Source: a virus. From it: 64,000 nucleotides of DNA. A model generated the notes under the pieces. The model was given only the letters and a program-made list of their open reading frames with translations, was not told where the DNA came from and ran no database searches. The position numbers and the translations under genes are program-made. Positions 19,746 to 59,960 of the stretch are shown piece after piece (the stretch's first letter is position 1; the number at the start of each line of letters is the position of its first letter). The stretch spans positions 6,625 to 70,624 of the IMG/VR virus record IMGVR_UViG_3300049893_002106; one strand, 5' to 3'.

Positions 19746-19846
19746 TTCCTCTTCGGAGGTGTAAACATCAGTATTTTATCATTTTTACGGAAAACACAAG
19801 GGACACATCTATACCACAAATGATATTCTATTATATAGGGAGCATT

Positions 19847-20107: not shown

Positions 20108-20132
20108 AATATTTATTTTAAAAATATATCTT
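20104..20132 (+). promoter_or_regulatory. Sigma-70-like promoter for the 20167 lipoprotein gene
   Basis: TTGAAA-17 nt-TATCTT. Confidence 0.5.
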
Positions 20133-20166
20133 TTCTTAAGGTTCTTCTATAAAGAAAGGGAACATT

Positions 20167-27110: not shown

Positions 27111-30100
27111 CTAATTTGTTTTGCCGTTTCTTGGAGCCGGTGCCTCTCCACGGTGGGAGAGTTTTCCGCCAAGCTTAGTAGTTGCATTATCTATCGCAGT
27201 TACTAGATCTGTCAAGGCAGATTTAAAATTCTGAGACGATCCGGTTAAATTATTTTTAATTTCATCGGCAGACATTTGAAGAGTCTTTTTAAAGTCCATC
27301 TGACTTTCAGTAACATTCTGAATATGCGGTCTGTCTAAAGCAGCCTGAACATCTCTTGCTTCTGCGCTTCCTTTATATTTCGCATCAGACGCAAGCCGTT
27401 TAGTATGGGCTTCGTAGACATCTCTTGTGATTTTTCTGCCTTTATCTGAAGTGATAAACCCAGAATCTCCCAGTTGATTAAAAAGGGCTTCAGGATCAGA
27501 AACGGATGTCGCCTTGAGCGATGCGCTAATAGATTCTTGAGATTTTGCCCTATTGACATTTACAGCGACATCTCTGCCCGAATCTGCTAGATTATTATAT
27601 GCTTGCATATTGGGAGTGAAAGTTTTAATCCCGGCTTGACGTAGCATATCGTAACCCATGAGCATTCCAGATTGAGCTGTTTGGCCTCTCATGGTAGATC
27701 CAACCTCAGCCCACCTAGCAGTAAAGTTACTAATCATTTCGCGCTTTTTCTTGGTGTCGGTTTCAGCGGAAATCGCTTTAATTTCGTCGGAAGCAGACTT
27801 ACCAGTTACAAACTGATACATAGCTTTAGAAACAGAGGACTGGCCCTTGCTCACTGAAGATAGTTTCTCTTTTGCTTTGGCGATTTTTTCAGCGTCCGTA
27901 GATCCTTCAGAGAGTCTGACGATATTTTGGAGATTAATATCGGTAATATCATCCAAGCTTTTTGCTGAAGACAAAGTTTCAAGGTGTTCTCCTACTTGCT
28001 GAGAAGAAAGACCCATCATTTGGCCTAAACCACCTCCAAATCTAGCTCCAACTCCCATGGCTCCAACAAACTTAGCCGCTCCTGTTAATCCTCCTGTTTG
28101 AGAAGTTTCAGCAGCTACATTTGCGGCAGCTCCCATTGCCATAGACATGGAGCGCAAATCACCCCTTCCGGTCGTACTCATAAATTGAGTAGCTCCGGCC
28201 AAATACTCTGAAGCTCTATTGGTATTCACTAGAGAATTTGACATGGCAAATTGCATGGAAGAATCGGTAAATCTTTGGCGGTCTAAAGCAGATTCCCAAC
28301 CTAAGGAATTGGCGTTAGCGTACATATTTTGCAAGCTTTGGAAATTATTATTTCCACCACGAATAGCATTTAATTGTACGAGCCTAGAAACATTCTGGTC
28401 AAAAGAGCCAAAACCAGCGAACTCCATATCTATCATGCGGTTAACTCCGCCAAGACCAGTCATTTTATATCCTGGGCCAGCAGCGGCATGAAATAAGTTC
28501 ATCTTGTCCGTATAAGCAGCGAGGGACATTCCTCTTTCTGCGGCAGCAGAAGATTTATACTCTCCCGACAACGGATCAATACCGGCCATCGCCCTATTGA
28601 TAGCGGTTGCACTAGCTGCATCCTGCTTCATCTTGCTATCGGTTTTAGCGCCACGGGTTAGATTATTTAATTGTTTATTTGCCGCATCAAACTTATCAAT
28701 TAACTCGTTAGGTATAAAAGCATCTTCGCCAAGAACCGACCACTTTCTGCCCGTAACCGGATCTATCGAAGTCAAAGATCCAGCGTCTCTTGCCTGAACA
28801 GCCCTCATTCTCTCTGCCCTAAGATCTACTGACTGCCTGACTATAGAACGAGAAGCCATACCTGCGGCCAATGCGCCACCCTGTATAATCACTTCATTAT
28901 CCGCTGCTGTATATGTTCCACCGGCAGACATTATCTGAGCTGCTTTTTTTGCCTCAGGAAGTCCAAGCCTATGAATAAGATCAATAGCATCCCCACGGGA
29001 TAGTGAACCTCCAGAAGCGCTTACTACAGAGTGGGACTGAGGGGCGTATTCACTTTTGATAACGTGTTTAAGAAATTTTTCTTGACCTGCCGGAGTATTA
29101 AATTGCGCTGCCGTAATACCAGCTTTTGCAAAGTTTTCTGGAGTAGTCCAAGCGTTGGTAAACTGAAAAGCTCCCCTAGCAGAGGAGGTGGAAGACTGGG
29201 CCGCTGCCGCCTCTTCCATAGACATTCCAGTAGTTTCGCCAGCCTTAATGCCAGCCATAATGCCGCCAAGATTCATTCCATCTACAAACTCATTCCCATA
29301 TTTCTTTCTAAAATATGCAGTAGTTGCAGAGGTTTGCTCTTTCATGATATTTTTATTATAAGCCTGTGCGCTTCTAGTGCTTTGACCTATCTGGCGCATT
29401 TGATCTTGTTTTTCTGAAATTTCCTTGCCAACTAACACCTCATTCCAGGCGTTATGTGACAATGCCCCTAAAAGTCTTTTGCCGCGACCTTGAGCCTGCA
29501 CTACATCGAGATAGTCTCTTCCGCCAACCAATTCCATCTGACGGCTTTGCACTTCAAGATCTTGAAGTTCATTTGCGGTTCCGAGAATATCCCTGCCTGC
29601 CATTTTAGTGGCAAGCATTTTATTTTCAGCGGCCATAAGAGCTTGTTGCTTATCAGTTAATCCAAAATTAAGCCATCCCGCAATGCCGCCAACTGACCCA
29701 CCCTGACGCAACATTTCAGATCTTGAATTAAGAGAGCCTGAAATATCAGATATTCCGCTGGCTGTAAGGCCAGCCGCAGAAGAAGCTAAAATTGCCGATA
29801 CAGGGGGAGCCACCGAACTATATGTCGCGCCAACGGCTGACGCAGCAGCTCCGGCCAGTTTTGCTGCTCCGGTTATTTTCCCCCATAAAGAATCATTTTC
29901 AGATATTCTTAAATTTTGGGAAAACTCTCTTAAAGATTCCATGCGAGCATTAGCTTCGCCCTTCGCTCCAATAAACTGACCTTCACCAGTAGCAAGGCTG
30001 ATTGGGCCTCTATATTTCAATACATTTTCAATATTGGTCATATCTCCAGCCCCAAGCCTTCTGCTCATGAGCAATTGAGATATTTCTGAGTCTACTGCCA

Positions 30101-31388
30101 AGGATTTTCTTACTGCACCTTCGTTAGTACGAAGCATACCCTGATGAATATTAAATCCCGCTGCCGCCAAAGGAGCCATACCAGCGATGGCACCTTTAAG
30201 TCCATTAATCATCTCCTTGAGATTACTCTTAAAGGAGCCACCATCTCCATCTCCTCCGCCACCACCAAAATTCTTTTGAATTTCGTTATTGCGCTCTATA
30301 GTATTATTTAACTTTTCAGTGGAGCGCCTTAGATCCTGCACGGCCTTATCATAAGCAACATCTCCTGGGCCTTTACCAGAGGCTCTAACTTCGGCAAGGC
30401 GCTTATCGGCCTCTAATGATTTTTCTCTAAACTCCCTTAACTCAGAAGCTATCTGGCTTAAGGCGCGAGCAGCTTCTTGGTCTGCACCGGAGGCGCTTTT
30501 TGCCAGTCTTTGAGCAGTAGATGTAGCTGTGGCTGCCATCTGTGCCGTATCAGTTTGCATAGTCCTTTTAATGTCGCCAAAAGAAAGGCCAAGCGAAGGA
30601 TCTTTCAATAGAGATGCCTTAACAGACTGACTCGCCCTGTCTGATTCGCTAAAGAACAAAGGAGATGACGAATGTGCCTCTTTTATAGCCTGTCTAGCAG
30701 TTCTTTTTTCATTCTCTAGGGAAATAGTCCTCTGAAGGTCTTCTTCTGGAAGACCAGCCATCCTGACTGCCATCTGGATAGATGAATCTTTGGATAGATT
30801 TTTAATTCCAGATAAGTGGGCGCGGTTTAAAGACTTCATCTCCAAGCCCAATTGACTTGGAGTAGCTCCCTCTTCTAGCCTTCTCATTGCGGCATTGAGA
30901 ACATCTACCGATGTAGCGCCACCTGGATCTAAAGATGTAACTCCAGAAGAGCTTCTCATATAGGCCAATGCGGAGCGGTGAGCTTCTGGGCCGAACTTAT
31001 TTCTTACTGCGTTTCGGTCGATATGAAGGAAATTCTCTGAGCGCTGACGCTCCATCATTTCTACTGCGCCTCTAGTATTAGCATCTAGTTTGGCGCGGTT
31101 TTCCATTTCTGCTTGGTGCGCTGATCTACTCAGCTCAGCCTGAATATGGGCCTGAAGCGGGTTAGAAGCTCCAGACATCGACTGGAAAGTTGAAGCCCCT
31201 TGAGGCGTAGTAAAACTCAGACCTTGAGAGTTAGCTGTTCCGGCAGCGCTTCCCATTGAGCCAAGGCTTTGAGATACTGCTCTGCCCGCTGTCGTTATCG
31301 TCTCGGACAACGAAGAAATCATGTTTTTCAGTTCGCCTAAGCTGCGAATCTGATCATTAAGATTAAGGGAAATTCTTTTATCTGCCAT
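27111..31388 (-). CDS. Tape measure protein with lysozyme-like domain (1425 aa)
   Basis: Ala/Gly/Ser-rich helical sequence upstream of the hub; IKAGETTG...SSARGAFQFT resembles a lytic transglycosylase/lysozyme motif. Confidence 0.8.
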   Translation of the reverse strand: MADKRISLNLNDQIRSLGELKNMISSLSETITTAGRAVSQSLGSMGSAAGTANSQGLSFTTPQGASTFQSMSGASNPLQAHIQAELSRSAHQAEMENRAKLDANTRGAVEMMERQRSENFLHIDRNAVRNKFGPEAHRSALAYMRSSSGVTSLDPGGATSVDVLNAAMRRLEEGATPSQLGLEMKSLNRAHLSGIKNLSKDSSIQMAVRMAGLPEEDLQRTISLENEKRTARQAIKEAHSSSPLFFSESDRASQSVKASLLKDPSLGLSFGDIKRTMQTDTAQMAATATSTAQRLAKSASGADQEAARALSQIASELREFREKSLEADKRLAEVRASGKGPGDVAYDKAVQDLRRSTEKLNNTIERNNEIQKNFGGGGGDGDGGSFKSNLKEMINGLKGAIAGMAPLAAAGFNIHQGMLRTNEGAVRKSLAVDSEISQLLMSRRLGAGDMTNIENVLKYRGPISLATGEGQFIGAKGEANARMESLREFSQNLRISENDSLWGKITGAAKLAGAAASAVGATYSSVAPPVSAILASSAAGLTASGISDISGSLNSRSEMLRQGGSVGGIAGWLNFGLTDKQQALMAAENKMLATKMAGRDILGTANELQDLEVQSRQMELVGGRDYLDVVQAQGRGKRLLGALSHNAWNEVLVGKEISEKQDQMRQIGQSTRSAQAYNKNIMKEQTSATTAYFRKKYGNEFVDGMNLGGIMAGIKAGETTGMSMEEAAAAQSSTSSARGAFQFTNAWTTPENFAKAGITAAQFNTPAGQEKFLKHVIKSEYAPQSHSVVSASGGSLSRGDAIDLIHRLGLPEAKKAAQIMSAGGTYTAADNEVIIQGGALAAGMASRSIVRQSVDLRAERMRAVQARDAGSLTSIDPVTGRKWSVLGEDAFIPNELIDKFDAANKQLNNLTRGAKTDSKMKQDAASATAINRAMAGIDPLSGEYKSSAAAERGMSLAAYTDKMNLFHAAAGPGYKMTGLGGVNRMIDMEFAGFGSFDQNVSRLVQLNAIRGGNNNFQSLQNMYANANSLGWESALDRQRFTDSSMQFAMSNSLVNTNRASEYLAGATQFMSTTGRGDLRSMSMAMGAAANVAAETSQTGGLTGAAKFVGAMGVGARFGGGLGQMMGLSSQQVGEHLETLSSAKSLDDITDINLQNIVRLSEGSTDAEKIAKAKEKLSSVSKGQSSVSKAMYQFVTGKSASDEIKAISAETDTKKKREMISNFTARWAEVGSTMRGQTAQSGMLMGYDMLRQAGIKTFTPNMQAYNNLADSGRDVAVNVNRAKSQESISASLKATSVSDPEALFNQLGDSGFITSDKGRKITRDVYEAHTKRLASDAKYKGSAEARDVQAALDRPHIQNVTESQMDFKKTLQMSADEIKNNLTGSSQNFKSALTDLVTAIDNATTKLGGKLSHRGEAPAPRNGKTN

Positions 31389-31542
31389 GAAATCCTCAAC
31401 AAATCTATTCTATTTTATCAGAAATAGATAGGGTTGGCAAGGAAGGCTATATCAAGGTGGAATAATTTTGGAAGATAATAATAGGTGGGAATATCGAAGA
31501 CTTACAAGAAAATTAGACAATATAGCCCTTAATTATTTTACC

Positions 31543-32735: not shown

Positions 32736-33191
32736 TTAAGCTGCGAATAAGGTATTTAAGTGTTTTTCCCAGTCAAGGAAAAAGGTATCTGGATTATCCA
32801 AATAAGTGTTCATTATTTTCAAGCCATCATTTTCATGTTCCTTGTTAAGGATGCAATGACCGGCTTCATGGTAAATAACAACCTTAAGCATCGCCATATC
32901 CTGGCGAAGTGCATTGTTCAGTAATATGCGTCTTGAATTTGGAACATTGTCTATTAGAGGGTTCTTTACACAAACCCCCAATATATCCTCACCGAGATCT
33001 ACAAAAACAACTTCCCCTAGAATACTATCGTCGATATGTAAGCCTCTAGCTTTTCCGTCACTTAGAAAAGAGTCAAGATCAGGCTTGGCCTGAGGGTCTA
33101 TATATTTAAAGATAGAAAAAGAGAAAACTACCGTCCAGACAGTCACAGCAATAAGTCTTAACAGGAGATAATTATAAAATAACGCTCTCAT
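32736..33191 (-). CDS. Membrane-anchored zincin-like metallopeptidase (151 aa)
   Basis: N-terminal TM helix; LGVC...IYHEAGHCILNKEH...IMN (HExxHxxxxxxH plus Met-turn). Confidence 0.75.
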   Translation of the reverse strand: MRALFYNYLLLRLIAVTVWTVVFSFSIFKYIDPQAKPDLDSFLSDGKARGLHIDDSILGEVVFVDLGEDILGVCVKNPLIDNVPNSRRILLNNALRQDMAMLKVVIYHEAGHCILNKEHENDGLKIMNTYLDNPDTFFLDWEKHLNTLFAA

Positions 33192-33747: not shown

Positions 33748-33763
33748 AAGTGCCTCACCACCA

Positions 33764-33791
33764 AAAGACAGGGCAATATTGCCCTGTCTTT
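33764..33791. terminator. Perfect 28-bp palindrome, probable intrinsic terminator after the DUF932 gene
   Basis: aaagacagggcaatattgccctgtcttt. Confidence 0.7.
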
Positions 33792-33799
33792 GAAAGAAA

Positions 33800-34771
33800 T
33801 TAAGCTGCCTTTGCCATACTAATAGCTACTTCTAAAGCATTTGCATTTTGAACTGCACCCTGACCAAACCATGTACTGTCCATACGGATAGCGGAGTCTT
33901 TGCCCTTGTAATATTGCATATATTCAATAACTGCATTATATGCTGCCCAGTAGGTGCCTTGAATGCCCTGGAGGTTATTTCCACGGCCAACTTCAAACAA
34001 AGGAATTACCTTTGCAAGAATTTTACTTTCTTGAATCTCACCATCTTCCAATACCTTGTCCTGTAGATTAAATACAACCTTGATATATTTCTTAAGATCT
34101 GCCTGATTAATCTGCTTAGAAGCAAGCAGACGATATTGTTCTGCATTGGCTTCAAATTCAGCATTGGCCAGGTTCATGATTTCACCGAGCTTCTCAAGAT
34201 TTTCAACTACTTTACCGGAGTGGCGGACTCTGATAAGCTTTGAACTGTTATTGCTAATACTAGCAGATAGGGTATTTTGGCATACAACCCGGATAGGAAC
34301 AAATCCTACACGGACTGCCATGGTTCCATCATGGCTATTGGAAAGCAACACATATTTATTTACAATATCATTACCCTTAATAACTAGAGGATCTCTATTG
34401 ATTTTAGCCAAAACCCAAATCCTTTGGCCATCACGGAGGCTACCGGCAGTCTCAAGGGTAGCAAGACCAGCTTCAAGGAAGGGATTGAAAAACTCAAAAG
34501 CCTCAATGTTTTGAAGAGGCTTGTAACCTGTCCCAACTACCCCAAGAATACGGCCATCTGATTGGCGGTAAGTGGCTACAGCAGGAACCACTTGAGCTGT
34601 ATCTACTGTCACCAGCTTTTTAACTCCAACCGACCAATCAAGGCCAGCAGCTACAATTGCCTCTCGAATACTAGGAGGATTATCTAGCTTCTGCCCAAGG
34701 CCATGCCAAGGAGCATCGCCAACATAAAACATTTGCCCTTGACCATTTTTCATTTCGATTTCGTGTGCCAT
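33800..34771 (-). CDS. DUF932 / TIGR03299-like phage-plasmid protein
   Basis: PWHGLG, AGLDW, LGVVG..YKPLQN, ETAGSLRDG, LSNSHDG, RVVCQNTL, VRH motifs; true start MAHEIE at 34771. Confidence 0.9.
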   Translation of the reverse strand: MAHEIEMKNGQGQMFYVGDAPWHGLGQKLDNPPSIREAIVAAGLDWSVGVKKLVTVDTAQVVPAVATYRQSDGRILGVVGTGYKPLQNIEAFEFFNPFLEAGLATLETAGSLRDGQRIWVLAKINRDPLVIKGNDIVNKYVLLSNSHDGTMAVRVGFVPIRVVCQNTLSASISNNSSKLIRVRHSGKVVENLEKLGEIMNLANAEFEANAEQYRLLASKQINQADLKKYIKVVFNLQDKVLEDGEIQESKILAKVIPLFEVGRGNNLQGIQGTYWAAYNAVIEYMQYYKGKDSAIRMDSTWFGQGAVQNANALEVAISMAKAA

Positions 34772-34788
34772 GGTAGCCCCCTTTAATT

Positions 34789-34806
34789 GACGACTTGATT
34801 GCCGTC
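34789..34806 (-). promoter_or_regulatory. 5'-leader stem-loop (copy 1)
   Basis: Sense GACGGC-AATCAA-GTCGTC, identical to 39609-39626, just downstream of the sigma-28 -10 box. Confidence 0.7.
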
Positions 34807-34817
34807 TTATATATCCC

Positions 34818-34844
34818 TTATCGGCATTTTTCAAAAAAACTTTA
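34818..34844 (-). promoter_or_regulatory. Sigma-28 (FliA)-type promoter 1
   Basis: TAAAGTTT-TTTTGAAAAAT-GCCGATAA, perfect consensus with 11-nt spacer, intergenic, upstream of DUF932. Confidence 0.9.
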
Positions 34845-34874
34845 GCTCTTTTTTAAGAAAAACTTATTTATTTT

Positions 34875-35168
34875 TTAAGATACTAATTTTACTGGCTCTT
34901 TTTCGTCAGGAAAATGATCGGCAATGATGCCCACTATATTGGCCAAGAAATAATTGAGGCTATACTTACTGTCGAAAGTCATAGCCCCAGACTCTACAGC
35001 CATCATCAGGTGATCCTGGTGATAAGAAAGATAGTCCAGTATTTTTGCGCGATTGATAAATACTACAGAACCTTCCTCCTTTTCCTGCAATACTTCGTCC
35101 TTTACCCTCTTAATCAGCAAAATCAAGTCCCTGACCGTCGTTTCTTTTGTTGCATCAATAAAAGTCAT
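34875..35168 (-). CDS. Hypothetical protein (97 aa)
   Basis: ORF overlapping the NIF3 gene end, RBS AGGAAG. Confidence 0.6.
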   Translation of the reverse strand: MTFIDATKETTVRDLILLIKRVKDEVLQEKEEGSVVFINRAKILDYLSYHQDHLMMAVESGAMTFDSKYSLNYFLANIVGIIADHFPDEKEPVKLVS

Positions 35169-35886
35169 TTAGTTTCTTCCTTCCTTTGAATATTTCTGTT
35201 CCAAAAACATCAATATCTAACGGTGCAATATCTACTTGAATCCCATGGGGATTTAGTATTTCCTCAAAAAGCTTCCCACCAATCCTCTCAGATAGAGTGT
35301 GGCCTATTTCTATCAAGAAATTAAACCCAGACCCTTCTGGAGAAGCAATATTTTCTCCAATAATATAGCAGTCTACTTTACTAGACCGGGCCAAGTTAGT
35401 TACCATACCACCTAAGCCAGTGCATATAGCTATAGAAGATACGACCTCTGGAGCAGAAGGGGACTTATAGACATGGCCCTTAAGTCCACCGGCAAAATCC
35501 TTAATCTTATAAACAAGATCTTCAAAAGATATAGGCTCTATTTCCCCATAAGGGCCGAGATTGTCATTAAATCTTTTGTTTGTGACTAAACCAAGATGGT
35601 CTGCCCACATATCATTTAGTCCGCCCTTCACACAATCCAGGGCGGTATGAAATATGAGCTGTGGAACACCAGTAATATATGGATGATGAGATATTAAAAG
35701 ATCATATCCTTGATCTTTAAAATATTTCACTACCTTAGGTGTAGGGGTTACACAATATAGAACTCTTTTTATTTCCAATTGAGGAGGGACATGAAAAGCA
35801 CCATAAGGCTCTCCTTCAGTTCCACTCCAGGTATTTGTCGGTGGAATGCGCTTTAAGCACATCTCAATAACGTCTGAGGCTTTCAT
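35155..35886 (-). CDS. NIF3/YbgI (DUF34) dinuclear metal-centre protein
   Basis: LLISHHP, HTALD..GGLND, IAICTGLG, YIIGE, EIGHTLSE motifs; true start MKASDV at 35886 after AGGAGG. Confidence 0.85.
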   Translation of the reverse strand: MKASDVIEMCLKRIPPTNTWSGTEGEPYGAFHVPPQLEIKRVLYCVTPTPKVVKYFKDQGYDLLISHHPYITGVPQLIFHTALDCVKGGLNDMWADHLGLVTNKRFNDNLGPYGEIEPISFEDLVYKIKDFAGGLKGHVYKSPSAPEVVSSIAICTGLGGMVTNLARSSKVDCYIIGENIASPEGSGFNFLIEIGHTLSERIGGKLFEEILNPHGIQVDIAPLDIDVFGTEIFKGRKKLNDFY

Positions 35887-35909
35887 ATTAAGCCCTCCTT
35901 CCATATTCC

Positions 35910-35936
35910 TTATCGGCATATTGAAGAAAAACTTTA
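35910..35936 (-). promoter_or_regulatory. Sigma-28 (FliA)-type promoter 2
   Basis: TAAAGTTT-TTCTTCAATAT-GCCGATAA; the TAA of the -35 box is the stop codon of the upstream gene. Confidence 0.9.
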
Positions 35937-36593
35937 GCTCTTTTTTAAATTATTTTTAACAATCTGCTTAATTTTATTCCTAAGCTTCAGAGATGCCAGG
36001 AAATATTTAAAATATTCACGAGCAGATAGACCGATCTTCATATTTTTATATAAATAAGCTATTCCATCTACCAGATACGCTTGGGCTTCGTCGATAGCTA
36101 CTGACTCGTGATAGCCAAGCTCCTGTATTTTAGTAAGATATTTACCTAAATTAGGCAAAGAATTGACAATAGAGGTAGAATATTTCCTATATTCTTCAGA
36201 AAGATAAAACGTAGCGTGAGCCATTTCATGAGGTAGCGCGGTCATATATGTTCTGGCTATAGCAATAACATAAAACTCTTGCTCCAAGTCTATATTATTA
36301 GCTATCATATTAAGAACGTCTTTTTCATCTTCAGATAGAGGATTAAAATCTCCATCAAAAAATTTTTTCAATACATAGCCAGGGAAGTTGTAGCCGCCCC
36401 AATCGTTATAATAAGTCCACGCCCCATTCTGTTGTTCATACCACTTACGGTATTGGTAAACGGAAAAAACCTCCCCCTTAAACCGAGGGGACTCATAATG
36501 CTCTCCAAATCGAATTAGAGAGCGACACATTTCATTTGGGGTATCGTATACCAATACGACCACTTTTCCGATCATGCTCATTTTGAAATACAC
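35934..36593 (-). CDS. HExxH-motif protein, putative metallopeptidase (219 aa)
   Basis: LPHEMAHA plus downstream DEAQAY. Confidence 0.65.
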   Translation of the reverse strand: MYFKMSMIGKVVVLVYDTPNEMCRSLIRFGEHYESPRFKGEVFSVYQYRKWYEQQNGAWTYYNDWGGYNFPGYVLKKFFDGDFNPLSEDEKDVLNMIANNIDLEQEFYVIAIARTYMTALPHEMAHATFYLSEEYRKYSTSIVNSLPNLGKYLTKIQELGYHESVAIDEAQAYLVDGIAYLYKNMKIGLSAREYFKYFLASLKLRNKIKQIVKNNLKKS

Positions 36594-36636
36594 GATAGAC
36601 CCCGTATTAGCGGCAAATGCCCATATCGGGCATCAA

Positions 36637-36768
36637 TTAGCCGTTTGTGTTAGTAGGAGCGGTTTCTTTAGGTGTGCGAGCGCGATATTTACCGCGTTTT
36701 TGACCCTTATCCGACCGTTGCTTACGAGCTTTCTTGCCTTCTGCCTGTACTGTTGCCGTGTCTGTCAT
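36637..36768 (-). CDS. Small basic putative DNA-binding protein (43 aa)
   Basis: Below the track cutoff; AAGGAGG RBS; MTDTATVQAEGKKARKQRSDKGQKRGKYRARTPKETAPTNTNG; followed by a hairpin at 36617-36633. Confidence 0.7.
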   Translation of the reverse strand: MTDTATVQAEGKKARKQRSDKGQKRGKYRARTPKETAPTNTNG

Positions 36769-36823
36769 AAGACCTCCTTTTTAATCTAAAATAATTATTA
36801 CATTAATTATTAAACAAGTCAAG

Positions 36824-36982
36824 TTATTTTCTTTCAATAACCGGACTGGCCACCTTTTTTTTGCTTTCATAAGATCGCGGAGCCGAAGAGTCCTCTTGAG
36901 ACTTAAGAGCCTCAATAGCCTTTAGATCTTTTTTGATTTTAGCTTCCATTTTTTTATACCAAGAAAATTTACGCGAAACCAT
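36824..36982 (-). CDS. Small basic hypothetical protein (52 aa)
   Basis: Below the track cutoff; AAGGAGG RBS; MVSRKFSWYKKMEAKIKKDLK...PVIERK. Confidence 0.6.
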   Translation of the reverse strand: MVSRKFSWYKKMEAKIKKDLKAIEALKSQEDSSAPRSYESKKKVASPVIERK

Positions 36983-36994
36983 TTTATGCCCTCC

Positions 36995-37534
36995 TTAAAA
37001 ATCCTTAATTAATCTATCGTAAATATCTGAATCAATCAAGAAGTCTTTTTGATCAAGAGAAGTTTTTACTCGTTTCCCATACTTTAGAATCTCTTCGCTT
37101 ACCTTCTCTGCCTCTTTAATCCACGGCCTATCCTCTGGCGGGAGTAAAGTTGAATAAAATTCCTCTTTTGAGTCTTTAGAATCTTTCCAGTGCCAGCCTA
37201 TCTTTCCTCCCGGTGAAGACTTTCTAAGTCGATGGCTCAAGTATTGTTCTATATAGGTAAGGCTCTTTGCAATATGGGAGGTAAGCTCTTCATCGCTCAA
37301 GTCATCGAACAGTGTAACTATAAATCTCCTATCCGAAAAAGATACAAAAGAATTTCTATTACCTGGCTTTCCAAATGGAGTTTTTTTAATTACGAACTGT
37401 ACACGATTCTTCTTTAGAGAAGATGAAATTATCTGAGGCCATAAAGCATAGACTTTTTTTCTAACAATCTTTTTAAAGGATTCATCTGGCGAACTAAATC
37501 CAAGCCTATTCCATATATAAATCATGTCTATCAT
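36995..37534 (-). CDS. Hypothetical protein, degenerate zincin-like (179 aa)
   Basis: IAKSLTYIEQY...RPWIKEA resembles LAHELVHVKQY...PWEKEA phage metallopeptidases but lacks both His. Confidence 0.55.
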   Translation of the reverse strand: MIDMIYIWNRLGFSSPDESFKKIVRKKVYALWPQIISSSLKKNRVQFVIKKTPFGKPGNRNSFVSFSDRRFIVTLFDDLSDEELTSHIAKSLTYIEQYLSHRLRKSSPGGKIGWHWKDSKDSKEEFYSTLLPPEDRPWIKEAEKVSEEILKYGKRVKTSLDQKDFLIDSDIYDRLIKDF

Positions 37535-37535
37535 A

Positions 37536-37982
37536 TTATTTACCCTTTCGTATCTTCCTGTCGAGAGACAGCTTAACTTTAGCGATTGGATATTTACGGT
37601 GAACTAAAGTAGAATATATTCCCTCATCTTTGATTATTTTTTTAGCATAATTATCGCAATCAATCTCTGCCTTGTGCCCTATAGACAGCCTTTTTTGATA
37701 TTTCGCTTCGTAGACAGAGAAGTAGTATTCTTTAAATTCACCAGTAATATAGTGCATTAAGTGGCAAAGCTCGTGGGCAAGCACGAAACACTTATCTCCT
37801 TTAGTTACCCTTTTACCGTTCGGCTTCTTGGCCGTATTAATCACGATCTCTTGCCCAAAAAAAGCAATATATCCATATATATGTAAGCCCTCATCTTTTT
37901 CAATTGGCCTAAAATAAACCTTAAAACCAAACCCTTTGGCTAGTTTTGTCAGTCTTTTTAGTAAATGATCAGCTTTTGACAT
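37536..37982 (-). CDS. ImmA/IrrE-like metallopeptidase
   Basis: FVLAHELCH plus downstream EIDCDNYA; likely start MSKADH at 37982. Confidence 0.7.
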   Translation of the reverse strand: MSKADHLLKRLTKLAKGFGFKVYFRPIEKDEGLHIYGYIAFFGQEIVINTAKKPNGKRVTKGDKCFVLAHELCHLMHYITGEFKEYYFSVYEAKYQKRLSIGHKAEIDCDNYAKKIIKDEGIYSTLVHRKYPIAKVKLSLDRKIRKGK

Positions 37983-38007
37983 ATTGACTCCCTCATCATC
38001 CATATCC

Positions 38008-38034
38008 TTGTCGGCATTTTCTAAGAAAACTTTA
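38008..38034 (-). promoter_or_regulatory. Sigma-28 (FliA)-type promoter 3
   Basis: TAAAGTTT-TCTTAGAAAAT-GCCGACAA (one mismatch), A-tract upstream. Confidence 0.85.
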
Positions 38035-38051
38035 GCCCTTTTTTTAAAAAA

Positions 38052-38483
38052 TCAATTAAGAGGCTGATTCTTATGGCCATTTAAGGCTCTAACGGCAGCA
38101 GTTATCTCTTCCCAGTCCTCTTCGTCCTCTACTAAAGCCGACAGAGAGATATTACTCTTAATTAATTCGAGCCTAGTTCTAGCAACTAATTGCCTCAGGC
38201 AAGTGCGAAACTCTTCTGCCTGTCTCTTATTTGCAGAGGCCATATTGGTTGCGCTAATAAGATTAGACCTGAGTCTGTCCATTTTGATTTTTTCGGAGAT
38301 CAACAGATGTCTCAGCTCATTAGTATCGGAATTGGCTTCTCCTATCCGCTTAAGATAGGAAACGTGAAGTCGATGTATTTCCAACTCTAACTCCCTTAAA
38401 CGGAGCCAAGGAAGGAAAATAAGTTTTAATTTACTTAAAACCTTCACCAATACTCCTAGCTCAATAGTTGCGTTACAAACCAC
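38052..38483 (-). CDS. Hypothetical coiled-coil protein
   Basis: ORF in operon; start uncertain. Confidence 0.55.
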   Translation of the reverse strand: MVCNATIELGVLVKVLSKLKLIFLPWLRLRELELEIHRLHVSYLKRIGEANSDTNELRHLLISEKIKMDRLRSNLISATNMASANKRQAEEFRTCLRQLVARTRLELIKSNISLSALVEDEEDWEEITAAVRALNGHKNQPLN

Positions 38484-38995
38484 ACTCCATTGATTTGGAA
38501 AGGACTTCCATTGCTGACGTTAGAAGAGATTCTCTTGAGCTGCTCACGCTCATTAAGCGGCAAGTCATTGAGGAGGGTATTGAACTTCTCCTCTTCCTCT
38601 ACTGGAACCAGAAGGGAAATGGGTGCGGAAAGAGACTTTTCCTTGAACTGTTTAGCCGCCTTAATAGCAATATCTTCATTAGACAGTGCCGCATATTCCC
38701 TAGAATCCTTAATCATAGACAGGGCATTTAGCACTTCTTCTGGAGTGGGACTGCGCCAAACCTTAACCCTAACAGTAGGGTCCGATAAGGACTCCTCAAG
38801 CTCAAAGGTAGTGCCATTATGGTGCGCCCTTGCCTGTAAGAGCTTCTTGTTTTCTTCTGTTTTCTTTCGATCTATTTCATATCCAGTTTCAATTTTGGAT
38901 GTTTCCATGATCTTCTTCCACCGAGAAGAAGTGCCAAATAGCTCCAAAGAAAGAACATCTAACTTATCGCGTAAGGCGCGTGAAACTCCAGACAT
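38456..38995 (-). CDS. Hypothetical protein (179 aa)
   Basis: ORF with AGGAG RBS. Confidence 0.65.
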   Translation of the reverse strand: MSGVSRALRDKLDVLSLELFGTSSRWKKIMETSKIETGYEIDRKKTEENKKLLQARAHHNGTTFELEESLSDPTVRVKVWRSPTPEEVLNALSMIKDSREYAALSNEDIAIKAAKQFKEKSLSAPISLLVPVEEEEKFNTLLNDLPLNEREQLKRISSNVSNGSPFQINGVWFVTQLLS

Positions 38996-39003
38996 ATTAA
39001 CTC

Positions 39004-39396
39004 CTAATTTGGCGAGTCCTTTTGAGATTCCAAGAATCTCTCTTCTTTTTCAGAGAGAGCCAAAGAAGGCTCCCTTCTTGAGAGAGTATATTCTGCGGCC
39101 TCCATACCAGTCAAGTAAAAACCGGAGTCGGTTATCTCAAAATATTCAGCCAAAGATACAGAATAATTCTGCATTATTGCCGCAGAAACCATGGCTGCCG
39201 TATTAGGCAGAAGCGAAGATCGAAGCGATAAGAACATCCTATCTAGCTCAGGACTATAAGTAAGCTTAGCTAGAAGCATATCTTGCGCTTCGTCTTTTAT
39301 AATCGCCTTATTCTGTCCAGACGGGACAAGGGACTTGCCGGAAATCTTCTTTACCGCCAATCCCAGTGCTGTCCAGTCAGGCTTATTAGGCTCCAT
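39004..39396 (-). CDS. Hypothetical protein (130 aa)
   Basis: ORF in operon. Confidence 0.65.
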   Translation of the reverse strand: MEPNKPDWTALGLAVKKISGKSLVPSGQNKAIIKDEAQDMLLAKLTYSPELDRMFLSLRSSLLPNTAAMVSAAIMQNYSVSLAEYFEITDSGFYLTGMEAAEYTLSRREPSLALSEKEERFLESQKDSPN

Positions 39397-39595
39397 GTCC
39401 TAGCCTTTTCTTAAAAACTTTCAACAAAACAAGAGACAGAGCCAGTTCCACTCCAAGGCCAATTGTTACACCAAGAAACGGATCAATAAAAAATAGATGA
39501 CTGAGACCATAAAACAAAGTAAATGATAGGAATTTATCCAGGGTGTGAGCTGCTGCTAAGGTGTGGGCATTTTTTGCATCAAAGTTAATTTTCAT
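39386..39595 (-). CDS. Small membrane protein (69 aa, two hydrophobic segments)
   Basis: True start MKINF at 39595 after AAGGAGG; hydrophobic stretches and basic C-terminus. Confidence 0.65.
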   Translation of the reverse strand: MKINFDAKNAHTLAAAHTLDKFLSFTLFYGLSHLFFIDPFLGVTIGLGVELALSLVLLKVFKKRLGHGA

Positions 39596-39608
39596 AAGTC
39601 CTCCTTGA

Positions 39609-39626
39609 GACGACTTGATTGCCGTC
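39609..39626 (-). promoter_or_regulatory. 5'-leader stem-loop (copy 2)
   Basis: Identical 18-mer to 34789-34806. Confidence 0.7.
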
Positions 39627-39636
39627 CATGAATCTC

Positions 39637-39663
39637 TTATCGGCATTTTTCAAAAAAACTTTA
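39637..39663 (-). promoter_or_regulatory. Sigma-28 (FliA)-type promoter 4
   Basis: TAAAGTTT-TTTTGAAAAAT-GCCGATAA, identical to promoter 1; -35 overlaps the upstream stop codon. Confidence 0.9.
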
Positions 39664-40191
39664 GGGGTCTCCGTCATTTTTTATATAAGTCATTAATTCC
39701 TCTTGCAAATCTACCCAATTTTCTCGGCAATATTCTTCCGACATCATATAGGGATACATAATATGCCCTTCTTTCTCGGAATGAGCTTGATCAAAAAGAC
39801 AATGAGTTAGCTCATGATATATTAAAGCCCTAAATTTACAAGGATATTCTTCCTGGATATTTTCTACTTCTATATAAGAAAAAGACAAGGCATTAGATCC
39901 ATTGGGCATTTTTTGCCAATATCTATAGCAAACACCAATAACATCGTCATTAAAAGAATTAAACCTTATAGATCGCAAAGCATAGTCATCTCCATGTCCC
40001 AAGCCATTTTGATCTATAACAGCTAAATACTCTCTATAGTAATACTTTATCTTAGGATCTATAAACTTATTTGTAGTTACAAACGGAAGGTCTTGTTCAG
40101 GTAAAAACCTGTCTACAATTGGCGGCCTCTCTTGAGGAGCCATTTGCCCGCAAGAAACTACAAACAAGCATATCAAGAGCGCCCTAATCAT
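39661..40191 (-). CDS. Lipoprotein zincin-like metallopeptidase (176 aa)
   Basis: Lipobox VVSC; IGVC...IYHELTHCLFDQAH...IMYP. Confidence 0.75.
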   Translation of the reverse strand: MIRALLICLFVVSCGQMAPQERPPIVDRFLPEQDLPFVTTNKFIDPKIKYYYREYLAVIDQNGLGHGDDYALRSIRFNSFNDDVIGVCYRYWQKMPNGSNALSFSYIEVENIQEEYPCKFRALIYHELTHCLFDQAHSEKEGHIMYPYMMSEEYCRENWVDLQEELMTYIKNDGDP

Positions 40192-41528
40192 TTGCAAATT
40201 ACTCCTGAGCTAAAGGCCGATAGATTAGCAAATATTTCTAGCGGAACCGAAGCAGAGTAGCATATCTCCCCTGTAGATGAAATTATCAAGTTAGTAGGGA
40301 CAGAGCCATAAGAGGTTTGCCTTACTTTTGTATCTTGGCCATCAGATGATTTCCAAATAACTTGCAGTCCTCTTCCAACTATCTTACTCGCCACCCCAAT
40401 AGAGCCACCGATAGATCCAGAAGATGTGGCACTTCTATTAAGTGAGACAGTAAAAGAATCTACGGTGGAGCTGATTACTCTTTTTTCACCATAAAGATCC
40501 CCGCGAGTTATGCCTCTACCAGAGGATAACATTTCGAGTATTACAAGATCCCCAGCCACTACTCCAAGGGAGGCTCTGTGAGTTCCACTTCCAGCCGATA
40601 CATAAACTACTGAAGAGCCGCCTTTAGTGAGAGAAACCTGGAACGTGTCATTTGTGGCACTTTTAATATAATAAACCGTATTAATATTGAGACCGGAAGG
40701 GAGTGTTCCTGTGGAGCCAAACATTACCGGATCATTATTAGCAAAGCCATGGGAAGCGGAATTAATTAATAATCCCGAACCGCTGTTCGTTGCCGTAAAA
40801 GATATTGAAGATTTATTTACCGTAATGAGATTACTACCGGCAGAGGTGGTTATTGGATTACTGGGCAGCGAAATATATGTAGACTCACCGGACACATAGG
40901 CCAAGATTTGAGAATGGTCTGCCTTGCGCAGCAAGCTCTCGAACAGCGGGCCGCCATAAGATGATCCTTCGCCTACTAGCACTTCTTGCACAGTTCCGCT
41001 CAATGTCCCTGAAATAGAAGATGTCAATATAACTAGATTATCTACTACACTCTGTAAAGTAGAGATGCTTGAAGCGGCTGTATTAATCTGGGATTGAAGA
41101 CTAGAGATAGTGGAAGAAATATTTGCAATCTGTGCTTCGATGGAAGGCACGTTGCCATTTTTTAAATCAGCAATATCTTCTTCGAGAGCTTCAAGTTGAT
41201 TATTAAGTGCATCGCTAAATGCGGCAAGCTGTGTTTTGAGTTCCACTCTAGCCTCTACGGTTGAAGCCTGAGCAACATTACACATCTTCTGGATAAGGGG
41301 GTCTTGAACATTAACCCCAGAGCAAGAAGCAAAGTCGCTATAAATTAGCGCTTCTATGGAACTAGAAATATTACGCAAGGAAGCCATTTGACTTTCTAGG
41401 TCTTGAAGCTTTTGCTCCTGAGTTGGCTTATGAGTGCAGCCATCAAAACAATCGACTGGACTCCCTGGCTCTGGATCACTACACGAAAACGCTAGAGGGA
41501 AAAGAAGCAATAAATATGTAAGCTTCAT
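40188..41528 (-). CDS. Putative lipoprotein with coiled coil and C-terminal beta domains (446 aa)
   Basis: MKLTYLLLLFPLAFSC lipobox; long heptad region; HGFANND..GTLPSGL..TVYYI..DTFQVS domain common in virion proteins. Confidence 0.65.
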   Translation of the reverse strand: MKLTYLLLLFPLAFSCSDPEPGSPVDCFDGCTHKPTQEQKLQDLESQMASLRNISSSIEALIYSDFASCSGVNVQDPLIQKMCNVAQASTVEARVELKTQLAAFSDALNNQLEALEEDIADLKNGNVPSIEAQIANISSTISSLQSQINTAASSISTLQSVVDNLVILTSSISGTLSGTVQEVLVGEGSSYGGPLFESLLRKADHSQILAYVSGESTYISLPSNPITTSAGSNLITVNKSSISFTATNSGSGLLINSASHGFANNDPVMFGSTGTLPSGLNINTVYYIKSATNDTFQVSLTKGGSSVVYVSAGSGTHRASLGVVAGDLVILEMLSSGRGITRGDLYGEKRVISSTVDSFTVSLNRSATSSGSIGGSIGVASKIVGRGLQVIWKSSDGQDTKVRQTSYGSVPTNLIISSTGEICYSASVPLEIFANLSAFSSGVICK

Positions 41529-41531: not shown

Positions 41532-41894
41532 TTAGTCCTTTTTCTCGGCTGCCGGTTCAATTACTTTCTCTTCTTCTTGAGTTGGCTTTTGAAGCTCAAG
41601 AACCTTATCAATAAGCCACCAAACAGGGGCCGTATCTTCGAGATCTAGTCCACGGTCTCCCCACCATTTCGGTGCCTCAACAATATGGAAAGCCAGATGT
41701 GCATATGCCGAAATAAGATCCAGCATCGCGTCATCTGTTACTCCTGCGCCCAACACACCATTGAGGCGGGCAACATCTACTTTCTCTTTAAAGACAAGAT
41801 ACCGCTTAACGGTAAAGCGGCCTGTGTATTTCTTTTTTGTGCGTTCCCCCTCTACATTCTCCATAGAAAGAAAGTCATTGCTATTATTGATCAT
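41532..41894 (-). CDS. Tail assembly chaperone (G-like)
   Basis: YTGRFTVKR...HIVEAPKWW...DLED pattern, near the tube genes; likely start 41894. Confidence 0.6.
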   Translation of the reverse strand: MINNSNDFLSMENVEGERTKKKYTGRFTVKRYLVFKEKVDVARLNGVLGAGVTDDAMLDLISAYAHLAFHIVEAPKWWGDRGLDLEDTAPVWWLIDKVLELQKPTQEEEKVIEPAAEKKD

Positions 41895-42312
41895 TTGATC
41901 CTCCGGTTGGTTCAAATTGTCCAGTTTTCATAAATTCCTTAAACCTATCCATTTCCTGATCAGAAGGTTCTGGGACATCATCCCATTTTCCATCGTCGTC
42001 GTCAAATCCTTTTTCCACAATATCTGCAAGAGTATTGGCCTGTTTCTTAATCTCGTCCGATACAGTTTCTACTACTGGCGTACTTCTCTCTCGAATAAGG
42101 AAGACTTCAAAGGCCAATTGGTCTATCGTTTTGTCGTCGAAATAATTTGAAAAAAATGGAATAGAATATTTTTCGCTCAAGGACATCCTATAGACCATTT
42201 CAAGGTCTATTTCATCCTCTACAATGCCATTAGCTATGCGCCTAGCATAAGCCTTGGCAATCTCTATTCTTTTTTCGAGATACGGCTCTTTATATTTAAA
42301 GGACTTACTCAT
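41884..42312 (-). CDS. Putative second tail assembly chaperone (142 aa)
   Basis: EKYSIP..NYFDDKT.DQL motif, acidic tail, adjacent to the chaperone gene. Confidence 0.45.
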   Translation of the reverse strand: MSKSFKYKEPYLEKRIEIAKAYARRIANGIVEDEIDLEMVYRMSLSEKYSIPFFSNYFDDKTIDQLAFEVFLIRERSTPVVETVSDEIKKQANTLADIVEKGFDDDDGKWDDVPEPSDQEMDRFKEFMKTGQFEPTGGSNDQ

Positions 42313-42977: not shown

Positions 42978-43595
42978 TTAGTCCTCTTCTTCGCCTAAAA
43001 TTGCATCTGCAAGACCAATATCCACCGCCTCTTGAGGGCTTAAAATAGTATCAAACCTCAAAAGCTTCTTTAATTTTGCTTCTGAAAATTTTGGATCTTT
43101 TTCTCTAATGCGCTCTAACAGTATATTATTTAAGTATTTTTCATACTTTATATTCTGCTGAACCCATCTGCGAGCTATCTGCGGGTGATTAGTAGGGACA
43201 GATTCTTCCCCATCATGTATCATTAGGACAGAACTCGGAGCCATAATTCTCTTGTCGGCTGCCTGTAATATCCAAGCTCCCATAGAACAAGCTTCAGCGT
43301 AGACGATTATATGGACAGGATTTACGCAATTACGAATGGCATCATAAATAGCCATACCCTGATAAATATCCCCGCCCGAATTATTCATATAGATAGTAAT
43401 AAGTTTATCGCCCGAAGGCGCTGCCGTATCCAGGAGAGTGAGGGCTTTTATAGCTTTTTCGGCCATCTTAAAGTCGGTGCCCGTTGAGTCTCCGTCTTCG
43501 TTATAATTCCCGCCCAAATAAATAATTCTGCGATCAGGGAGTACACCATGTTCCATGAACTCGTCAACAAAATCATTATTAATTTTCTTAGACAT
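42978..43595 (-). CDS. clpP: ClpP-family serine protease
   Basis: RIIYL, IYMNNSGGD..GMAIYDAI, ACSMGAWILQA (Ser), MIHD (His), DTILSPQEAVDIGLAD (Asp). Confidence 0.9.
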   Translation of the reverse strand: MSKKINNDFVDEFMEHGVLPDRRIIYLGGNYNEDGDSTGTDFKMAEKAIKALTLLDTAAPSGDKLITIYMNNSGGDIYQGMAIYDAIRNCVNPVHIIVYAEACSMGAWILQAADKRIMAPSSVLMIHDGEESVPTNHPQIARRWVQQNIKYEKYLNNILLERIREKDPKFSEAKLKKLLRFDTILSPQEAVDIGLADAILGEEED

Positions 43596-48478: not shown

Positions 48479-48607
48479 TGGATACTCCTATAGAACAGTC
48501 CAAGGTTATTTTAACATGAAAACCTGTTTTATATTCTTTGGATAGTTTTGGCGGGGAAGGGTCTGGTAAGTAATTAATTTTATATACATACAGTCTTTAT
48601 TTTCCCA

Positions 48608-50380
48608 TCAAGGAGCGGGTATATTTTCAATTTTCGGTCTAACGTATTTTATTTGTCCGTAATCCCAAAACTTTTTAAGACCTATATCATAGCCACTATT
48701 TCCAAGATATTTTCTTCTGTTCCAGTGGAAATATCCGTCAGTCCATTCAAACCCAATATGTTCACTTGTTTTGATAAATCCCATAGCTAAAAGGTGTTTT
48801 CCACTTCCATGTCTCCTGTCAACAAAGTTAATTATATCTTTGTCTTTTGGCAATAGCTTTAAAAGCTTAGAATATCCACCAGTTACAGAATGGCCTACCA
48901 GAGAGGCAAACCTGCTTATATGGATAACACCGCTCTCTTCATAAAACCTTATGGCGCATACCAGTTTTCCATTGCTATATAGTCCAAAAGTCTTACCCTT
49001 GCCTCTTCCCCTTAGATGATTATTGTCAAAAAAGGCATTAGATTCAGTATTGTCCACTTCTTTAATTTCACACTTTCTTGCTCTTACTATTTTAGACTTA
49101 CCAAGCTTATTATTAATCATAGAATCAACAATTTCCCTCTTTTCCTTGACCTCAAATTCAGAGAATGCGAGGAGGTTGTAGCCAAGATTGTTAAAGGCTT
49201 CCCATTTTTTAAAATGATAATCTTTGCTTTTCTTTTCTTCTGAGTGGTATCTCATGCCATCTGTTTCTATTATTAATTTTCTCTCTTCCAGTCTAATATC
49301 TGGTCTATAATTAACCCCACTTAGAGCCTTGTTATATATAGCACCTTCTATCTGGATTAATTGTTCAAAAGACTTGGTAGATATGGCAGTTTCCATAACG
49401 CCTATGCCATTTTTTATATTTCTGTAATATCTTAAATTTGGAACTCCCATCGCCTTGCATGCCTTATTTAAGGAAATTCCACTATCTAACAAATTCTTAA
49501 TACCAACTCCAATGTCTATATTTTTCATTCTTCTTACGATAGAGGAGCTTAATGCGCTTTTCCATTTTTGAGTCCAAGACTGACCTCTATAAGTCAGCCT
49601 AGCTTTGCCGTTTTCCAGCTCTTCGATTTCAAGACCTATTGTTTTTAATTTTTCTAAAAACTTTAAATGGTTAGGGTTGTCATTATTAATTTTAGGTCTA
49701 GCTATAGCCCCGTCTATCATGAACCTTCTGATTCTTATACTTCGAGAAACTCCGTCCTCCCATGATACTTGTATAACATTGGACGGGCTGCTTAGATCTC
49801 CGCTATATGATGAGATGCCAGAGTCTTTGATAACTTTTAAAATATCGGCTTCAAAATACTTCTTAGCGTATTTAATGGAATTTTCCCTAGCTCTTTGTTT
49901 ATGTTCCGGTGATTGCGCTGCTGCCCTGACTCTATCCAGCCAGAGTCCGCCTTCTTTTCGTTTGGCGTATTTCTTTTTAAGACACTGTGGGCATTGATAC
50001 GCATGTCCATACCTTTGAAGTGATTTTTGGGCATCTGTCCATGCCGGTGAACCTACAGTGTCACATCCATGGCATTTTATAGATACATGCTCATGAGCCT
50101 TAATAGACCTGGAGGTTGTATCAATAAGGTTGTGGGCTTTAAGTATCTGCTCATCATAGATGACGGCTTTTGCATCTCCGATTTTTTTCTTGAGACATTC
50201 AGGACACTGATACGCCCACCCTTTCTCTTTAAATGAGCGATTGGCCTGATCCCATTTAACTCCACGGCTATTGCTGCAACTGTGGCACTTAAACACCACT
50301 AATTCTTTTTGCTCAATTTGCCTTGTATTTATATCTATAGCCATCATAGTTTCGAGAAGTTCTCTTGATCTAGTTGGCAT
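48608..50380 (-). mobile_element. Free-standing Hef-like / PD-(D/E)xK homing endonuclease (590 aa)
   Basis: Two N-terminal CxxC...CxxC repeats; RPDI...IIETDGMRYHS nuclease; ARKCEIKEV...FFDNNHLRG...ISRFAS...GGYSKLL...FVDRR C-terminal domain. Confidence 0.8.
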
Positions 50381-57947: not shown

Positions 57948-58011
57948 TTAATTAGTCTCCAGGTAGAGTCTTCAGTTAATGATTTTATCATATGGCGAGT
58001 TTTTTTGCTAG

Positions 58012-59858: not shown

Positions 59859-59960
59859 TGAATTAGTCTCCTATTAAGGAATGTCTCACATTCTGCATTT
59901 TAACACAAGTCCCAACTAAAGGACTTATGTAATTTTACCAGATAACTTTTAAGGTAATAC

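Follow-up and report, generated by a model that had tools for sequence, protein, structure and literature searches.

Introduction

The usual explanations of phage gene programmes invoke the housekeeping sigma factor of the host, phage polymerases or phage sigma factors. The flagellar sigma factor of the host, sigma-28, is held by the anti-sigma factor FlgM until the hook-basal body is complete, and free sigma-28 marks flagellated, motile cells. Here we describe four sites with the form of sigma-28 promoters, P1 to P4, in the accessory region of a phage. They lie in a window of 64,000 nt, bases 6625–70624 of the 70,624-nt viral contig IMGVR_UViG_3300049893_002106 (a linear record, G000), and positions below are those of the window. 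Class 3 flagellar promoters (FliA, SigD and WhiG) have the same −35 and −10 elements, the same spacing and the same position just upstream of genes. The predicted promoters P1 to P4 differ from them in lying in a lytic-type phage genome and in heading genes without a flagellar link.

Phage-derived DNA that follows the flagellar sigma factor has been reported for the Escherichia coli cryptic prophage genes flxA (Qin) and ykfB (CP4-6); Table 2 of PMC1935009 gives a −28.4-fold change of flxA on fliA deletion and an 8.2-fold change on overexpression. These are single genes in defective, host-domesticated prophages, whereas here a whole accessory region is arranged around four sites, a relative having as many as 13, in a large phage that carries the complete set of structural genes.

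Repeated promoter modules are known from T4-type phages, in which short promoter-early stem-loops (PeSLs) lie on either side of non-essential ORFan genes in hyperplastic regions and are believed to bring about modular shuffling (PMC2839356). The locus studied here resembles them in having near-identical modules, P1 and P4, in a region that is hypervariable between relatives. PeSL promoters are sigma-70-like and come with a terminator stem-loop, whereas the sites here are of the sigma-28 type, the sole strong terminator follows a DUF932 gene, and the conserved hairpin is in the leader downstream of the promoter. A moron has its own promoter, gene and terminator between structural genes; the unit of P1, the DUF932 gene and the terminator fits this description, while P2 to P4 have no detected terminators.

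Phage-encoded sigma systems, among them SPO1 gp28 and gp33/34, T4 gp55 and the sporulation-like sigma factors of Bacillus phages, likewise partition phage genes by a second promoter class, distinct from the housekeeping class of the host. In contrast to these systems, we found no full sigma factor in the contig or in its relative G005, and the promoter has a cellular, not a phage-specific, consensus. The locus also resembles the SPO1 host-takeover modules, with their many close strong promoters and one or two small ORFan genes each. We found no description of sigma-28-type promoters organising the genes of a lytic-type phage in the open-access literature searched, and in PMC6282759 sigma-28 is mentioned for host flagellar genes only. 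On the reading favoured below, the phage would use a host alternative sigma factor in moron-like or PeSL-like cassettes.

Results

Four sigma-28-type sites at gene junctions

There are exactly four matches to TAAAGTTT-N11-GCCGAYAA in the window, all on the minus strand, as compared to a mean of 0.00 and a maximum of 0 in 100 dinucleotide-preserving shuffles of the window. No further copy occurs in the whole 70,624-nt contig. The initial annotation had reported four minus-strand sites with an 11-nt spacer, and these are confirmed at the same coordinates (Table 1). The −10 element is GCCGATAA at three sites and GCCGACAA at the 38008 site (T to C). The specified consensus positions are matched at 16/16 in three sites and 15/16 in one, and the 11-nt spacer is fixed in all. 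When up to three mismatches were allowed, six matches were found in the window (shuffle mean 1.0), and the two additional ones, each with three mismatches, at 24176 (plus strand) and 53789 (minus strand), are both within long open reading frames (ORFs). The loose pattern TAAA-N15-GCCGA, searched over the whole contig, yielded the same four sites and one plus-strand match at window position 60740. A chance origin of the four sites is rejected by the shuffle and mismatch controls and by the reversed-pattern control in IMG/VR described below.

We take TAAAGTTT-N11-GCCGATAA to be the enteric sigma-28 consensus, with a −35 element TAAA(GTTT), a −10 element GCCGATAA and a separation of 11 nt, and the sites have each of these parts. 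All four sites fall at gene junctions on the coding strand, as determined from the ORF table and a reading of the minus strand, and each is upstream of and co-directional with a gene. The distance from the end of GCCGAYAA to the ATG is 46 nt for the DUF932 gene (ATG at 34771), 23 nt for the NIF3 gene (35886), 25 nt for the gene of a protein with an HExxH motif (37982) and 41 nt for the gene of a 69-aa hydrophobic protein (39595), so that the 25–50 nt to the ribosome-binding site or start given initially was about right. A GGAGG-like ribosome-binding site is present at all four start codons, and at P2 and P4 the TAA of the −35 element doubles as the stop codon of the preceding gene. Motif, spacing and junction position support the sigma-28 promoter anatomy proposed for the sites, and from these we infer sigma-28 dependence and transcription start sites. 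P1 to P4 are probably working promoters that are read by host RNA polymerase with a host sigma-28-family factor (FliA, SigD or WhiG type).

The sequence TCCGATAAT ahead of the capsid gene weakly resembles a sigma-28 −10 element; its −35 has three mismatches by eye, and the site was not counted.

The motif recurs in related phages and across IMG/VR

We identified five relatives in IMG/VR by capsid homology (63–73% identity) and scanned them with up to two mismatches allowed, alongside a reversed-pattern control; gene calls in these records are crude longest-ORF calls. The scan found 3 sites in G001, 13 in G005 (all on one strand), 4 in each of G006 and G007 and none in G008, a 9.5-kb fragment. 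A further record, G002, which has two proteins and its GC content in common with G001, contains 2 sites. The control count was 0 in all six records. The sites of G006 and G007 are identical, and these two records are therefore probably one phage. In related phages the same motif recurs co-directionally with genes. In four cultured distant relatives, Myxococcus phage Mx1 and three Herelleviridae, no sites were found; the host of Mx1 is not known to be flagellated.

G005 is a 182,732-nt record scored 100% complete by CheckV. Eight of its 13 sites are within 7.4 kb (96.5–103.9 kb), each ahead of one or two small ORFs, and at 13/13 sites a Shine-Dalgarno-like sequence and an ATG follow within 70 nt. 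At positions that the search left unconstrained, 26 family sites kept a C before TAAAG (24/26), a ninth T (25/26) and a T before GCCGATAA (23/26), with an A-tract about 5–9 bases upstream and a variable spacer, which gives the extended form C-TAAAGTTTT...T-GCCGATAA. Conserved −35 and −10 elements separated by a variable spacer are the pattern expected of a two-element promoter.

A divergent, back-to-back pair was observed in G001 (27508–27567): the minus strand reads TGGTAAAAT, the plus strand has an exact sigma-28-type site 24 nt away, and the two drive genes in opposite directions.

Across IMG/VR, for which all counts are lower bounds, the exact motif with GCCGATAA occurs at at least 126 loci, comprising at least 135 sites in at least 112 contigs; the reversed-pattern control gave 40 loci, each in a different contig. 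Among the matches listed, 16 contigs carry two to four exact sites, as compared to 0 in the control. At 73 of the 131 listed sites with enough flank, an ORF of 50 codons or more, with its start codon and a ribosome-binding site, follows just downstream, against 13/131 in the mirrored control.

In at least five other viral contigs (L020, L035, L054, L095 and L099), an exact sigma-28 site lies ahead of the gene of a conserved protein with the N terminus MRIA(G/S)H.NK and a GHKL-like E..SNA.DA motif, and these look like a second phage group with the same promoter type. A prophage-like site in isolate-derived IMG/VR records (L015 and others) was considered as the Qin flxA promoter and rejected, as it has no match in complete E. 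coli genomes.

P1 and P4 are alike over about 60 nt, including the identical spacer and an identical leader hairpin, and the G005 sites have conserved flanks in common, for example ATCAAAAAAGGC upstream. The sites also bound non-conserved cassettes, in the manner of the T4-type PeSL shuffling modules (PMC2839356). These features would suit a repeated element that is mainly not a promoter but serves recombination or shuffling, or is bound as an operator by a phage DNA-binding protein, its likeness to sigma-28 promoters being incidental. We regard such an element as improbable, given that conservation is centred precisely on the two sigma-28 elements, with a variable spacer between them, that the orientation is always that of the downstream gene, and that gene starts follow the IMG/VR sites well in excess of the mirrored control. 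As with the PeSLs, a part in shuffling would come on top of the promoter function and not replace it.

The sites head short units in an accessory block

Within the array of morphogenesis genes, the four sites are placed between the group of sheath, tube and protease genes and that of the baseplate genes, in the orientation of both. From 41532–41915 to 32736–33191 the interval measures 8.3 kb, as compared to 2.3 kb between the homologues of these genes in G001. In the span 33800–40197, homologues in the contigs of relatives were found for only two genes, 39004–39396 (in G001) and 35934–36593 (in G002), whereas the flanking head and tail genes are conserved among relatives at 30–73% identity. 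The scarcity of homologues, the conserved flanks and the difference in interval together mark the block as a hypervariable accessory insert, about 6 kb in length, within the tail-gene array of a phage of about 165 kb. The initial description of the sites as heading accessory genes is accordingly upheld, in that the block genes are not conserved among the relatives.

The P4 unit consists of four small genes, and the P3 unit of the HExxH protein gene, two small genes, a sigma-70-like promoter, a 43-aa peptide ORF and the gene of a 219-aa protein with a HEMAH motif. The P2 unit comprises the NIF3 gene and a 97-aa gene, and the P1 unit the DUF932 gene followed by the terminator (Table 1). Family scans bore out two of the gene names given initially, DUF932 (E 1.7e-52) and NIF3 (E 1.7e-27). 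The name ImmA-like is tentative for the 148-aa HExxH protein, which has its HELCH motif and sub-threshold Peptidase_M78 and M91 hits only; the label "membrane protein" for the 69-aa protein corresponds to two hydrophobic stretches seen by eye. NIF3 homologues number 143 proteins (best 53% identity), and the closest DUF932 homologues elsewhere were taken from 30 loci (27–57% identity). A sequence search with five block proteins against Protein Data Bank chains gave no match below E 0.08.

Early or host-takeover timing of the block genes, as suggested initially, is a guess that finds no support here: the block is inside the late tail-gene array, has the same orientation, has no detected terminator ahead of P2 to P4, and contains one sigma-70-like promoter (36822–36794).

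Directly upstream of P4, the gene at 39661–40197 (minus strand) encodes a small predicted lipoprotein (signal peptide end VVSC|G) with a metzincin-like motif, HELTHCLFDQAH, and a possible Met-turn, IMYPYM. The initial annotation had read zincin lipoproteins as fitting a predatory host; this gene is driven by none of the four sites and is uninformative about the host.

Table 1. Predicted promoters, genes and other features of the window.
Feature	Coordinates	Strand	Remarks
P4	39637..39663	-	sigma-28-type promoter TAAAGTTT-TTTTGAAAAAT-GCCGATAA; TAA is stop of upstream lipoprotein gene
P3	38008..38034	-	sigma-28-type promoter TAAAGTTT-TCTTAGAAAAT-GCCGACAA
P2	35910..35936	-	sigma-28-type promoter TAAAGTTT-TTCTTCAATAT-GCCGATAA
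P1	34818..34844	-	sigma-28-type promoter; spacer same as P4 spacer
Leader hairpin after P4	39609..39626	-	GACGGC-AAUCAA-GUCGUC; centroid -8.1 kcal/mol; z -1.3; 40-nt leader
Leader hairpin after P1	34789..34806	-	GACGGC-AAUCAA-GUCGUC; -10.5 kcal/mol; z -2.9; 45-nt leader
69-aa hydrophobic protein	39386..39595	-	first gene of P4 unit; no family hit
130-aa protein	39004..39396	-	sole P4-unit gene with G001 homologue
179-aa protein	38456..38995	-	P4 unit; without assigned function
143-aa protein	38052..38483	-	last gene of P4 unit; without assigned function
148-aa HExxH (HELCH) protein	37536..37982	-	first gene of P3 unit; weakly ImmA/IrrE- or M91-like
179-aa protein	36995..37534	-	P3 unit; without assigned function
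52-aa protein	36824..36982	-	P3 unit; without assigned function
Sigma-70-like promoter in block	36794..36822	-	TTGACT-17-AATAAT, TG in front
43-aa basic peptide ORF	36637..36768	-	downstream of internal sigma-70-like promoter
219-aa protein, HEMAH motif	35934..36593	-	G002 homologue; stop codon overlaps P2 -35
NIF3/DUF34-family protein, 243 aa	35155..35886	-	first gene of P2 unit; PF01784 E 1.7e-27
97-aa protein	34875..35168	-	second gene of P2 unit; without assigned function
DUF932 protein, 323 aa	33800..34771	-	sole gene of P1 unit; PF06067 E 1.7e-52; phrog_1221 E 8.8e-63
Intrinsic terminator hairpin and T-run	33763..33791	-	ends block; -23 kcal/mol; z -4.8; 0/200 shuffles as stable
TG[A/G/T]TAAAAT sites	62177-62185, 59932-59940, 59897-59905, 57982-57990	-	upstream of core genes
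TG[A/G/T]TAAAAT sites	48508-48516, 31412-31420, 19773-19781	-	upstream of core genes
Major head protein	50500-52005		
ClpP-type head protease	42978-43595		
gp5-like baseplate hub	23636-25024		
Baseplate-J fusion, 2528 aa	12159-19745		

The contig is a contractile-tail phage with a second promoter-like class

Pfam and PHROGs scans identify the contig as a contractile-tail phage, which in addition to the structural genes of Table 1 encodes tail-collar fibre proteins, a class II ribonucleotide reductase and a dUTPase. The tail sheath is the 935-aa protein encoded at 45671–48478, as judged by its sole cultured match, in Myxococcus phage Mx1 (28% identity), and the capsid protein is distant kin (24–27%) of Herelleviridae and Mx1 capsids. 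CheckV estimates a completeness of 43%, which places the full genome at about 165 kb. No tRNA genes were found in the window.

Very large virion-type proteins are encoded at 3–3293 (at least 1097 aa, beta-propeller repeats), 3752–9646 (1964 aa) and 12159–19745 (2528 aa), and further large ones at 27111–31388 (1425 aa) and 53988–57947 (1319 aa, GP88 domain). Between the sheath and capsid genes, a 590-aa protein (48608–50380, minus strand) has homing/HNH-endonuclease PHROG hits and a DUF559 hit, with a homologue in G005 at 44% identity. G005 also encodes a Cpn60-family chaperonin, RtcB, ThyX, adenylosuccinate synthetase, three DNA methylases and a DNA polymerase III alpha gene with intein/Hint domains (L176:15080–18514).

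Core genes are preceded by a second motif, TG[A/G/T]TAAAAT, which occurs on the gene strand in intergenic DNA without a conserved −35 element. In G001 (55.6% GC) there are 12 copies, all on the gene strand. These sites look like extended −10 housekeeping (sigma-70-like) promoters. With core genes using this class, the sigma-28-type sites form a separate class that, in the contig, is confined to the accessory block.

Between baseplate genes there is an unusually long, AT-rich gap of 451 nt (19746–20196), and the overlapping ORFs 20167–20547 (plus strand) and 20197–20511 (minus strand) there have no family hits.

The host of the phage

A profile scan of cellular genome contigs with the capsid alignment gave a single match, the 5-kb contig L191 (CAIQQL010000021.1). 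Its capsid protein is 68% identical to the phage capsid, it sits in a bin labelled "uncultured archaeon", and it is probably a mis-binned phage fragment. Within the phage family GC content varies between 37 and 56%, and this spread implies that the hosts are several and different.

FliA-like promoters of the form TTAAG-N16-CCGATA were reported at 92/140 attack-phase promoters of Bdellovibrio bacteriovorus in PMC3627812, in agreement with the initial statement that FliA promoters dominate in the attack phase. A predatory Bdellovibrionota host with a FliA-run attack phase, in which the cassettes would be expressed in non-growing attack-phase cells, would be consistent with this report, with the several sites in relatives that begin TTAAG like the Bdellovibrio consensus, and with the freshwater sediment from which the sample came. 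The nearest cultured relative, Mx1, infects Myxococcus, a genus formerly classed with Bdellovibrio. We nevertheless find such a host very doubtful. The sigma-28 consensus is common to many phyla, the GC range of the family implies several hosts, and the sole match in a cellular assembly is the short contig in the archaeal-labelled bin. In addition, the Bdellovibrio spacing, as given in PMC3627812, is one base longer than that found here.

Search for a phage-encoded sigma factor

Neither sigma region 2 nor region 4 (Sigma70_r2 and r4) was found in G000, the 70.6-kb contig that represents 43% of the genome. In G005, six-frame searches revealed no sigma region 2 (best 11.5 bits) and no FlgM, and in a Pfam scan of 245 of the 254 ORFs of at least 60 aa neither sigma region 2 or 3 nor an RNA polymerase appeared; the other nine ORFs were covered by the six-frame searches only. 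PHROGs searches with 150 unannotated G005 ORFs returned no phage sigma family, and FlgM (PF04316) was found in 0 of the 5 records searched. The 16 multi-site IMG/VR records listed all stay below the FliA_WhiG cut-off, one of them with a region-4 match of 18 bits. Six have a completeness of 90% or more, with terminal repeats in four, and these six have 0 Sigma70_r2 matches.

G005 does encode a 97-aa protein (130660–130953, minus strand) that consists of sigma region 4 only (Pfam Sigma70_r4, 25.7 bits). It matches positions 149–223 of the 224 in the FliA_WhiG model (29 bits), its best NCBIfam match is a FliA/WhiG model (37 bits) with an ECF-type model at 36 bits, and its gene is 7 nt behind a sigma-28-like site. 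No homologue is present in the 70.6 kb of G000. On its own the protein cannot recognise a −10 element; it could decoy FlgM, could act as a competitor or could make up one half of a split sigma factor.

The initial annotation had offered a phage-encoded sigma-28-like factor as the alternative to host FliA. This is weakened by G005, which is scored complete and has no full sigma factor, with the region-4-only protein as the part that is present there. We consider it rather unlikely that P1 to P4 are read by a phage factor that is encoded in the missing 57% or so of the genome, is too divergent to be recognised, or is split. Large myoviruses such as SPO1 and T4 do encode their own, sometimes split, sigma factors, and the FliA/WhiG matches of the region-4 protein and its place directly behind a sigma-28-like site point in the same direction, but this protein scores nearly as well on ECF-type models and has no counterpart in G000. 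No region 2 or 3 was found in G000, G005 or the six near-complete multi-site genomes. Most G005 ORFs are unannotated, which leaves space for a divergent factor, but a protein divergent enough to evade the Pfam, NCBIfam and PHROGs profiles would be unlikely to retain the specificity of cellular sigma-28 for exactly these −35 and −10 elements and this spacing.

The preferred reading, in which host sigma-28 recognises P1 to P4, has a number of observations to its disadvantage. The region-4 protein shows that the lineage carries sigma-derived parts, a phage sigma factor could sit in the part of the genome missing from a contig about 43% complete, and a very divergent one could be among the G005 proteins without a family hit, which are the majority. 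The completeness of G005 is itself an estimate, no terminal repeats having been found, and the multi-site record G012, 84% complete, has a sub-threshold Sigma70_r2 match (20.8 bits). No terminators were found ahead of P2 to P4, and with the block co-oriented with the upstream late genes, expression by read-through is possible. At the 30 DUF932 loci there were 0 clear sigma-28 motif sites and one loose opposite-strand match (L146), so that the promoter does not travel with the DUF932 gene. FliA is presumed in the host of this phage, and the only public run that holds this DNA, possibly its source, is a DNA run of a freshwater sediment metagenome.

Discussion

On the reading that we favour, host sigma-28 holoenzyme would recognise P1 to P4, each at the head of a short cassette of non-conserved genes. 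The cassettes would have an input of their own, active solely in the presence of free sigma-28 and hence in host cells that are flagellated and motile; on DNA entry they would be transcribed only in motile cells and independently of the housekeeping sigma factor. Such coupling might guarantee early expression where infection proceeds through the flagellum, might allow escape from a shut-off of sigma-70 transcription, or might supply functions needed only in motile cells.

Hypervariable accessory cassettes, possibly with host-takeover or anti-defence functions, would then be gated by motility or, in a predator, by the attack phase, and the promoter modules would double as shuffling points for gene exchange. 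The region-4 fragment of G005, expressed from such a promoter, could decoy FlgM or compete, and so tune free sigma-28. Tentatively, and with the odds rather against it, the reading of motility through sigma-28 may be a widespread undescribed strategy, found in sediment myoviruses of 165–183 kb and in at least 16 other contigs, that combines gating of cassettes, shuffling points and a region-4 decoy or competitor. The sigma-28 consensus is conserved across phyla, and for this reason the idea is directly testable.

If P1 to P4 are read in this way, they would provide a direct molecular link from host behaviour (motility or attack phase) to phage gene expression. This would be relevant to flagellotropic infection, to the dynamics of phages and hosts in sediments and to the regulation and exchange of accessory or anti-defence genes, and the IMG/VR counts suggest that the phenomenon extends well beyond this contig.

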